43,367 bases of DNA from a virus (Duplodnaviria > Heunggongvirae > Uroviricota > Caudoviricetes): positions 1-43,367 of IMG/VR virus record IMGVR_UViG_2579778784_000007, one strand, 5' to 3'. A program made the position numbers and the translations under genes. Under the pieces are notes generated by a model. It saw only the letters and a list, made by a program, of their open reading frames with translations. It was not told the DNA's origin and did no database searches. This document shows positions 41,547 to 43,367 of this stretch, one piece after another (position 1 is the first letter of the stretch; each line of letters starts with the position of its first letter).

Positions 41547-41561
41547 GCTTTTTTATACTAA
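41547..41561. other. attR: attR core (O)
   Basis: GCTTTTTTATACTAA followed by bacterial B' arm CTTGAGCGAAACGGGAAGG; identical core to attL. Confidence 0.92.
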
Positions 41562-41651
41562 CTTGAGCGAAACGGGAAGGTAAAAAGACAAAAAGTTGTT
41601 TTTAATACCTTTAAGTGATACCAGATGGCATTGCGCCATCTGGCAGAGTGA

Positions 41652-42128
41652 TTAACTAAACATCGCAGTAATCGAGGCACTCGCCAGAGAGTGAAAATGA
41701 ACGTTAAACCCGACCATCGTGCCGCTGGCACCTTCATCGACATCAATACGTTCTACATCCAGCGCGTGAACGGTAAAAATGTAGCGATGGGTTTCGCCTT
41801 TCGGCGGCGCTGCGCCATCGTATCCGGTTTTACCAAAGTCGGTACGCGTCTGCAAAACGCCGTCTGGCATTGCTACCAGACCAGAGCCAAACCCTTGCGG
41901 TAATACGCGGGTATCAGCGGGTAAATTAACAACTACCCAGTGCCACCAGCCGGAGCCGGTTGGCGCATCCGGGTCGTAGCAGGTGACAACAAAACTTTTC
42001 GTTCCCACAGGAACATCATCCCACGCCAGATGCGGTGAAATATTATCGCCATCGTAACCCATGCCGTTAAAGACATGACGATGCGGCAGCTTATCGCCAT
42101 CGCGCAGATCGTTACTGATGAGTTTCAT
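41652..42128 (-). CDS. ybhB: YbhB, PEBP/RKIP-family protein (host gene)
   Basis: 158 aa MKLISNDLRDGDKLPHRHVFNGMGYDGDNISPHLAWDDVP... recalled as E. coli YbhB, the right-hand neighbour of attB-lambda. Confidence 0.88.
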   Translation of the reverse strand: MKLISNDLRDGDKLPHRHVFNGMGYDGDNISPHLAWDDVPVGTKSFVVTCYDPDAPTGSGWWHWVVVNLPADTRVLPQGFGSGLVAMPDGVLQTRTDFGKTGYDGAAPPKGETHRYIFTVHALDVERIDVDEGASGTMVGFNVHFHSLASASITAMFS

Positions 42129-42236
42129 TAGAATGCCTCCGGGAAACCTCGGCCTTCAGACCGGGGAGGAAAGGAGGCGGTTTTCCGACTAACTGTACTT
42201 TGCATAATCACATTTTCCTCTTTAGTATGTGAACAC

Positions 42237-43367
42237 ATGAAACGCGCATATAAATACCGGTTTTACCCGACAACTGAGCAGGCTGAGCTTTTAGCTCAGA
42301 CGTTTGGCTGTGTGCGCTTCGTCTACAATTCCATCCTTCGTTGGCGTACCGATGCGTACTACGAGCGAAAAGAAAAGATCGGTTATCTACAGGCCAACGC
42401 TCGCCTTACGGCGCTCAAAAAAGAGCCTGAATACATATGGCTGAATGATGTTTCCTGCGTTCCCCTCCAGCAGTCGTTGCGCCACCAACAAGCCGCCTTT
42501 GCTAACTTCTTTGCTGGACGAGTTGCATATCCGGCTTTCAAAAGCAAACGGCACAAACAGGTGGCTGAGTTCACTGCCAGCGCGTTTAAACACCGTGACG
42601 GCGAGTTGTATATAGCAAAGAGCAAGTCGCCGCTGGATGTTCGCTGGAGTCGAGAATTACCATCTGCGCCGTCAACCGTTACCATTTCCAGAGATAGCGC
42701 TGGCAGGTACTTTGTTTCCTGCCTGTGTGAGTTTGAACCTGTATCAATGCCTGTTACCGCTAAAACGGTCGGCATTGATGTGGGCTTAAAAGATTTATTC
42801 GTCACCGATACCGGATTCAAAACCGACAATCCCCGCCACACCGCTAAATATGCGAAGCGATTAACGCTGCTACAGCGACGTTTAAGCAGGAAGCAAAAAG
42901 GCTCAAGAAACCGTATTAAAGCCCGCTTAAAGGTCGCCCGACTCCACGCGAAAATCGCCGATTGCCGGATGGACAATCTGCACAAGTTGTCCCGCAAACT
43001 GATTAACGAAAACCAAGTTGTTTGCGTCGAATCCCTCAAGGTGAAAAACATGATCCGCAACCCGAAGCTGTCTAAAGCAATAGCTGACGCAGGCTGGAGC
43101 GAACTTGTTCGCCAGCTCCAGTACAAAGGCAAATGGGCCGGGCGGTCAGTGGTCGCCATTGACCAGTATTTACCGTCCTCAAAATGCTGTAGTTGCTGCG
43201 GTTTCACCATGCAAAAAATGCCTCTTAATGTTCGTAAATGGCACTGCCCTGAATGCGGCGCAGACCATGATCGCGACATTAACGCGGCACGTAATATTAA
43301 AGCTGCCGGGCTGGCAGTGTTAGCCCACGGAGAGCCTGTAAACCCTGAATCGCAGCACGCGGCTTAG
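42237..43367 (+). CDS. tnpB: TnpB (IS200/IS605-family RuvC-like, RNA-guided nuclease type)
   Basis: 376 aa ending at the window edge with TAG; RuvC-like motifs (GIDVGLKDL; VCVESLKVKNM; HDRDINAARNI) and zinc finger CCSCC...HCPECG; no tnpA in window. Confidence 0.85.
   Translation: MKRAYKYRFYPTTEQAELLAQTFGCVRFVYNSILRWRTDAYYERKEKIGYLQANARLTALKKEPEYIWLNDVSCVPLQQSLRHQQAAFANFFAGRVAYPAFKSKRHKQVAEFTASAFKHRDGELYIAKSKSPLDVRWSRELPSAPSTVTISRDSAGRYFVSCLCEFEPVSMPVTAKTVGIDVGLKDLFVTDTGFKTDNPRHTAKYAKRLTLLQRRLSRKQKGSRNRIKARLKVARLHAKIADCRMDNLHKLSRKLINENQVVCVESLKVKNMIRNPKLSKAIADAGWSELVRQLQYKGKWAGRSVVAIDQYLPSSKCCSCCGFTMQKMPLNVRKWHCPECGADHDRDINAARNIKAAGLAVLAHGEPVNPESQHAA

Follow-up and report, generated by a model that had tools for sequence, protein, structure and literature searches.

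The right-hand end of the stretch analysed here (the window, 43,367 nucleotides in all) carries what we take, at a probability of about 0.85, to be a complete copy of ISEc42, a non-autonomous insertion sequence (IS) of the IS200/IS605 family, IS1341 group, that holds only tnpB and is cut only by the window edge. The name is almost certainly right; it was given by the match of tabulated attributes (PMC9956272, Table S1), not by comparing the sequence with the ISfinder entry. That table lists ISEc42 as an IS1341-group element of 1294-1295 bp with a TnpB of 376 aa, the left-end (LE) cleavage site TCAT and the right-end (RE) cleavage site TCAA, present as 165 copies in 164 of 2467 E. coli genomes at 99.8% identity. 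The element in the window resembles it in its E. coli host, its tnpB-only content, its 376-aa TnpB, its length of about 1.29 kb and its cleavage sites (LE TCAT, RE TCAA), and also in having one copy per genome, in about 6-7% of genomes, with about 99.8% identity among copies. By our count the cleavage sites enclose 1291 bp where the table gives 1294-1295, which is consistent with the flanking tetranucleotide having been counted, and no other difference was found. An earlier sequence-only reading of this DNA had rightly seen a tnpB of the IS200/IS605 family and missed both the catalogued element and the gene name gipA. The element is thus already known, named and annotated; the pattern of its insertion at start codons, described below, may be new.

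Boundaries and a single insertion site

By comparing empty and occupied sites, we located the IS at 42129..43419 (1291 bp). The sequence downstream of the window was taken from E. coli 536, where the element occupies NC_008253.1 822651-823941 and where, as in many other genomes, window positions 41600-43367 are 100% identical. It puts the right end at 43419, past 43367 as the sequence-only reading had expected, with about 52 bp of the right end, and then the guide, beyond the window. The ybhB-bioA site of K-12, which that reading had proposed as a check, is indeed empty and fixes both the boundaries and the target motif TCAT: in K-12 and ATCC 11775 it reads gagtttcat directly followed by gaaccctcctttcttg (gagtttcat, then gaaccctcc), and in occupied genomes gagtttcat[tagaatgcc ... 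ggagccgtcaa]ga(a/g)ccctcc. The two forms differ by precisely the 1291-bp insert 3' of TCAT, and the element ends in GTCAA. The insertion is exact, without target duplication, because the divergent copy of E. coli 23CRST031 (locus L004; IS 97.9% identical, tnpB frameshifted) retains the ancestral flank gaaccctcc. Insertion at a fixed tetranucleotide, with neither target duplication nor terminal inverted repeats, places the element in the IS1341 group of IS200/IS605. In 23CRST031 both tnpB (frameshift) and the adjoining ybhB (internal stop) are pseudogenes (L004 2024-3725).

The three bases after the right end (window numbering 43420-43422; L001 5821-5823) are gaa in the ancestral state, gag in the window's lineage (flank gagccctcc) and ggg in GmF052 (L086; flank gggccctcc), while the remaining element is 99.7-100% identical. 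No empty site with gag or ggg was found, all of them reading gaa, so both variants arose after the insertion. They alter positions 2-3 of the guide, which still matches the joint expected from excision in the same genome.

The left cleavage site TCAT lies at 42125..42128 (+ strand). Across 24 independent insertions in the ISEc42/GipA family the left end is preceded by this tetranucleotide, from which flank we infer it to be the transposon-adjacent motif (TAM) as well. Its CAT is the reverse complement of the ATG of ybhB (41652..42128, - strand), an intact host gene of the kinase-inhibitor family outside the IS, and the left end abuts this start codon. The 108-bp spacer between ybhB and tnpB (42129..42236) has the insertion boundary as its first base, just past the ybhB start codon. 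The sequence-only reading had suggested that imperfect inverted repeats in this spacer may be the IS left end, and such repeats are present (see below).

The ybhB-tnpB junction was found in 342 of 5426 complete E. coli genomes (about 6%), and a copy at 95% identity or above likewise in 342 genomes, with a median of one place per genome. Since the 342 junctions equal the 342 copy-bearing genomes and the median is one place, all close E. coli copies sit at one site. The element was inserted once and then inherited at the single ybhB-bioA site in about 6% of complete E. coli genomes.

TnpB, the predicted omega RNA and related elements

The ORF at 42237..43367 (+ strand), whose TAG stop forms the final three bases of the window, is a full-length intact tnpB (alias gipA) of 376 aa, predicted to encode an RNA-guided endonuclease. 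Its Pfam matches, all above the gathering cut-offs, were HTH_OrfB_IS605 (PF12323), OrfB_IS605 (PF01385) and Cas12f1-like_TNB (PF07282), giving the domain order of TnpB: an N-terminal HTH, the RuvC-containing OrfB_IS605 and a C-terminal zinc ribbon (TNB). NCBIfam guided_TnpB scored 368.8 bits against a cut-off of 100, and the ORF aligned end to end with the ISDra2 TnpB structures 8bf8, 8exa and 8h1j (E 3e-75). The alignment showed that the RuvC triad is intact, with D181 (codon 42777-42779), E265 (43029-43031) and D347 (43275-43277) corresponding to ISDra2 D191, E278 and D361, and the four-cysteine zinc ribbon (CxxC...CxxC; C318, C321, C337 and C340, within 43188-43256) is complete. The RuvC-like motifs and C-terminal zinc finger from which the ORF had been called a TnpB are therefore borne out. 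The sequence-only reading had also named two outcomes that would speak against it, an ORF that was a fragment of a non-TnpB gene and an extended sequence lacking IS ends; by its domains and the ISDra2 alignment the ORF is a full-length TnpB, and both ends were found.

The dN/dS of tnpB against its relatives was 0.09-0.15, and the gene is under purifying selection across the ISEc42/GipA family; the E. coli copies are 99.7-100% identical, and selection on the E. coli copy is inseparable from recent common descent. Nuclease activity of the ISEc42-like TnpB is predicted from its position and homology. A domesticated, nuclease-dead TnpB regulator of the TldR type was rejected as an identity for the gene, the triad being intact and both transposon ends present. 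As the sequence-only reading had it, there is no tnpA beside the gene: tblastn with two Y1 transposase queries found none in the 43-kb window, and the same queries did pick up TnpA genes adjoining three distant relatives. Between the LE boundary and the tnpB ATG there are only 108 bp, and the element is tnpB-only.

A conserved omega-RNA (reRNA) scaffold was found in the last ~120 nt of the element, from ~43302 to the right end at 43419, which agrees with the earlier expectation of an omega RNA overlapping the tnpB 3' end and continuing past 43367. RNAalifold, applied to the 200 nt that lead into the right end in 27 members, gave a consensus structure of six helices. Within the window (43302..43367, + strand), helix 1 (43302-43307/43313-43318) and helix 5 (43350-43353/43359-43362) are whole, helices 2 and 3 are represented by their 5' arms (43324-43326 and 43332-43336), and helix 4 (43344-43347/43365-43368) has the last base of its 3' arm one position past the window end. 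Outside the window, on the same strand, lie the right-end hairpin (43390-43398/43403-43411), equivalent to helix 6 in the RNA alignment, then GTCAA, the right end, with its last base at 43419, and the predicted guide GAGCCCTCCTTTCTTG (~43420-43435, ~16 nt of host DNA). In the alignment, 95.2% of cells at the 30 RNA pairs were paired, compared to 38-48% in slid controls; compensatory changes occurred in 22 of the 30 pairs, and 0 of 500 shuffles reached the observed covariation score. These results support a predicted structured omega RNA that spans the 3' end of tnpB and the right end. The Rfam family RAGATH-18 (RF03064) matched 43324-43389 below threshold (29 bits, E 0.006, against a gathering score of 44.9), to be read as a resemblance only; RAGATH-18 RNAs are known TnpB guide RNAs (PMC11061315). 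A snoRNA match from the same Rfam search of the element was set aside as chance.

The family was surveyed in 79 loci found by scanning one representative genome set of species (Serratia, Citrobacter, Salmonella, Klebsiella, Providencia, Zobellella, Endozoicomonas and others) and a further 57 from viral contigs. In all 79 and 57 loci the right end reads ...GGGAG(N)nGTCAA and the next bases are unrelated, and in more than 40 loci it is kept as ...GGGAGCAGTCAA before unrelated flanks. The relatives are tnpB-only too, because in the 29 loci examined in detail the left end lies only 102-132 nt upstream of the tnpB ATG. In one Endozoicomonas genome (OZ246962.1), copies of a TnpB of 62-67% identity with right ends in GTCAA number more than a dozen (L035, L036, L042-L051 and others); the family is strongly expanded there, unlike the single fixed copy in E. 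coli. A solitary 71-bp fragment on plasmid p21AR0133C (L005 2501-2571) matches the 3' end of tnpB and the RNA region of the right end at 94% identity. It adjoins helix-turn-helix genes without tnpB and may be either a remnant or a guide-RNA module that stands alone.

On P1-like phage-plasmids there is a copy of about 80% identity (TnpB 85.6%; L003 2891-4185, E. coli plasmid pZ1323CEC0018-4) that is probably ISEc90; it also occurs in phage vB_EcoM-673R5 and about 44-58 E. coli plasmids. It sits at the start codon of pro, within the 8 nt by which prt and pro overlap, and so alters the C-terminus of Prt; its LE hairpin is degenerate. Its boundary has a 3-nt ambiguity (tat), which the invariant right end settles as TCAT, element, GTCAA.

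A close known counterpart is GipA of the Salmonella prophage Gifsy-1, reportedly described by Stanley and colleagues in 2000, with which the window's protein shares 86.2% identity along all 376 aa. The Gifsy-1 element shares the LE/RE architecture, the TCAT flank and the length of 1291 bp, and likewise lies antisense in an operon, its LE abutting the start codon of the downstream gpU homologue; it differs in its host site (phage tail genes) and its guide. To our knowledge, the virulence phenotype of Gifsy-1 GipA has never been connected to nuclease activity. It was already recognised as a TnpB-like, IS-borne protein (Bao and Jurka 2013, PMC3627910). The gipA PCR primers used in E. coli Crohn's-disease surveys (PMC5443141) match the ORF exactly at 42460-42479 (+) and 42623-42642 (-), and the reference adherent-invasive E. 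coli (AIEC) strain LF82 carries the same gene between ybhB and bioA. By orthology to Gifsy-1 gipA and by the published primers, the gene is gipA.

Two further elements were compared. ISDra2, whose TnpB and omega RNA (reRNA) are reportedly the subject of work by Karvelis in 2021, has the same TnpB domain order and catalytic residues, the RE cleavage site TCAA, an RNA overlapping the tnpB 3' end and right end, and a guide taken from flanking DNA; it differs in carrying tnpA, in its TAM TTGAT and in its 408-aa TnpB, the two proteins matching strongly (E 3e-75) yet being clearly diverged. IS609 (E. coli K-12, yncK/insQ) shares the E. coli host and has homologous end architecture, with GGTTTTCC coming after a two-part LE hairpin and ...GATGTCAA after an RE hairpin. 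It differs in having a divergent Y1 tnpA (a pseudogene in K-12) and the LE site TTAT instead of TCAT, and its InsQ is only 33% identical to the TnpB.

The left end and the neighbouring start codon

The left end and tnpB 5' untranslated region (42129..42236, + strand) contain a two-part hairpin, in which an outer stem GCCTCC/GGAGGC (42135-42140/42173-42178) flanks an inner stem CCTCGGCC/GACCGGGG (42147-42154/42159-42166). One inner pair is broken in the window's lineage by G>A at 42160, and a single-sequence DNA fold of the LE of this copy was no stabler than shuffled sequence (z -0.44), so it is the family alignment that supports the hairpin. There, across 24 left ends, 86% of cells were paired, compared to 35-58% in slid controls, and doubly changed cells numbered 47, compared to 17 in shuffles. 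The two-part hairpin is conserved with covariation across the family, and subterminal hairpins at both ends are a mark of the IS1341 group.

Two kinds of left end occur in the family, the TCAT type with a GCCTCC/GGAGGC outer stem (enterobacteria) and the TTAT type with a GCGCG-type outer stem. The inner hairpin of both has the form CCTCGGCC-loop-GGCCGGGG; the sequence at the hairpin foot is GGGAAA at TCAT-flanked and GTAAGA or GTAAAA at TTAT-flanked left ends. By eye, TTAT-type relatives (L019, L134, L027 and IS609 of K-12, L087 5140-5165) appear to sit directly after terminator-like hairpins and T-runs (...TTTTAT before the element), and terminator T-runs would then be a different safe site for TTAT-type than for TCAT-type elements. 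In a promoter and terminator scan, counts were not above those of shuffles; a promoter-like site on the minus strand facing ybhB (42233 to 42204) was not taken as evidence.

Of 24 independent TCAT-type insertions, 19 have their left end directly against the start codon of an opposite-strand gene; by source these are 15 of 19 loci in genomes and 4 of a further 5 in viral contigs. The 19 are the window (42125-42140), L003, L008-L011, L015, L017, L020, L026, L029, L030, L064, L065, L088, L108, L114, L133 and L136, with ybhB, P1 pro and the Gifsy-1 gpU homologue as annotated examples. A start codon was called on the reconstructed empty site where a frame pointing away from the IS stayed open for at least 100 codons with few open codons upstream, usually with the native Shine-Dalgarno (SD) also visible in the flank at the right end; L114, a viral locus, was included despite 40 open upstream codons, its native SD lying 6 nt upstream. 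Random ATGA sites in the same flanks were start-like in 5.4%. A second null lets only those insertions persist that lie in non-coding DNA or at starts; by a crude, ORF-based annotation it puts 25% at starts, and 19 of 24 then has a binomial p of 5e-8. The enrichment at start codons is real in this sample of 24; target choice, selection or an adaptive ribosome-binding site (RBS) are all possible causes.

At the ybhB junction, where the bottom strand reads cccGGAGGcattctaATG, the IS separates the native ybhB SD aaggaggg, now in the right-end flank, from the start codon. The element itself places a GGAGG (42136..42140, - strand) 7 nt upstream of the ybhB ATG, a putative IS-supplied SD that may work as the RBS of ybhB. 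The same GGAGG-N7-ATG arrangement occurs on the LE bottom strand of most enterobacterial TCAT-type copies, and Zobellella and Pseudomonas copies have no GGAGG yet still sit at start codons. We tentatively propose, as a reading with rather less than even odds, that the TCAT-targeting members of the ISEc42/GipA family are specialised for the SD-ATG junction of a gene on the opposite strand, the LE outer stem GCCTCC doubling in enterobacteria as a replacement RBS. Our literature search found no report of the start-codon pattern for this family, and a search for ybhB together with TnpB found nothing relevant.

Retention at ybhB and other explanations

ISDra2 and the Geobacillus elements suggest, by analogy, that TCAT followed by the guide GAGCCCTCCTTTCTTG would be recognised and cut by the complex of TnpB and omega RNA. 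This target would be present in the scarless joint left after excision or in the empty allele, and recombinational repair would then restore the element, a mechanism of retention described by Meers et al. (10.1101/2023.03.14.532601). The occupied site would be spared, because there the guide is preceded by GTCAA rather than TCAT. To move, the element would depend on a Y1 TnpA provided in trans, such as that of an IS609-type element, whose hairpin ends are similar; ISEc41 and ISEc46 are other sources of Y1 TnpAs in E. coli. Within E. coli no movement was visible, with no second site in 5426 genomes; since one LE hairpin pair is also mutated, this copy is probably immobile in E. coli in effect.

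Another reading is that the element is an inert relic without a cognate transposase, whose ORF and RNA persist only for want of time to decay. The single fixed site without second copies in the 342 genomes would fit such a relic, as would the broken LE pair in the window's lineage, a change in the RE hairpin of L086, the frameshifted tnpB of L004, stops in the related copies L011 and L021 and the degenerate LE of the P1-plasmid copy. The low family-wide dN/dS and the RNA pairing kept through compensatory changes argue against it, the window ORF has no lesion, and 161 of the 165 E. coli copies of ISEc42 are intact (PMC9956272). We consider a relic unlikely.

Less likely again is co-option by the host as GipA, the gene then no longer acting mainly as a selfish transposon nuclease. 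GipA reportedly promotes survival in or colonisation of Peyer's patches, in Salmonella with Gifsy-1 and in AIEC LF82; the gipA phenotypes reportedly described by Vazeille and colleagues in 2016 are given here in part after reviews. The 86% identity to Gifsy-1 GipA, the primer matches, the same gene at the same site in LF82 and stable retention at one site with the ORF intact in nearly all copies are all compatible with a host role. Against this, the triad, the zinc ribbon, the TAM-adjacent LE, the right end and the covarying omega RNA are all kept, which is the signature of an active nuclease, unlike the catalytically dead TldR forms. According to a review (PMC7205867), the association of gipA with the AIEC pathotype has not been reproduced and probably reflects phylogeny. 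Polar effects could underlie knockout phenotypes, since the IS lies between bioA and ybhB and provides the putative RBS of ybhB.

The sequence-only reading had the tnpB abutting the right flank of the prophage, which does not hold. The lambda att core GCTTTTTTATACTAA at 1331-1345 and 41547-41561 (attR) bounds a prophage of ~40.2 kb at attB between ybhC and ybhB; it ends about 570 bp before the IS, with ybhB between, and both ybhB and the IS are outside it. E. coli 536 and LF82 carry the IS with attB unoccupied, so the IS is independent of the lambda-like prophage, and K-12 has neither. That tnpB is cargo of this prophage and moved in with it is hardly credible given these genomes and the intervening ybhB, although IMG/VR prophage predictions include tnpB up to its stop codon and related copies do sit inside phages (Gifsy-1, P1-like plasmids). 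Eighteen IMG/VR prophage records (L090-L107) end at the same tnpB stop codon as the window (43367), which points to a gene-boundary artefact of prophage prediction.

For annotation, the ORF should be labelled as TnpB of ISEc42 and not as phage cargo, and prophage callers ending at the tnpB stop overshoot the true attR by ~1.8 kb. Nothing here alters what is known of how TnpB works. The virulence marker gipA of AIEC surveys is the nuclease gene of a fixed IS, whose presence tracks phylogeny. If the proposed specialisation for start codons is true, the element could sit in operons (bioA-ybhB, P1 prt-pro, Gifsy-1 Z-U) at little cost, and a change in how the neighbouring gene is expressed could account for part of the gipA phenotypes. 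If confirmed, the pattern at start codons would be a small addition to how minimal transposons limit the cost to their host.
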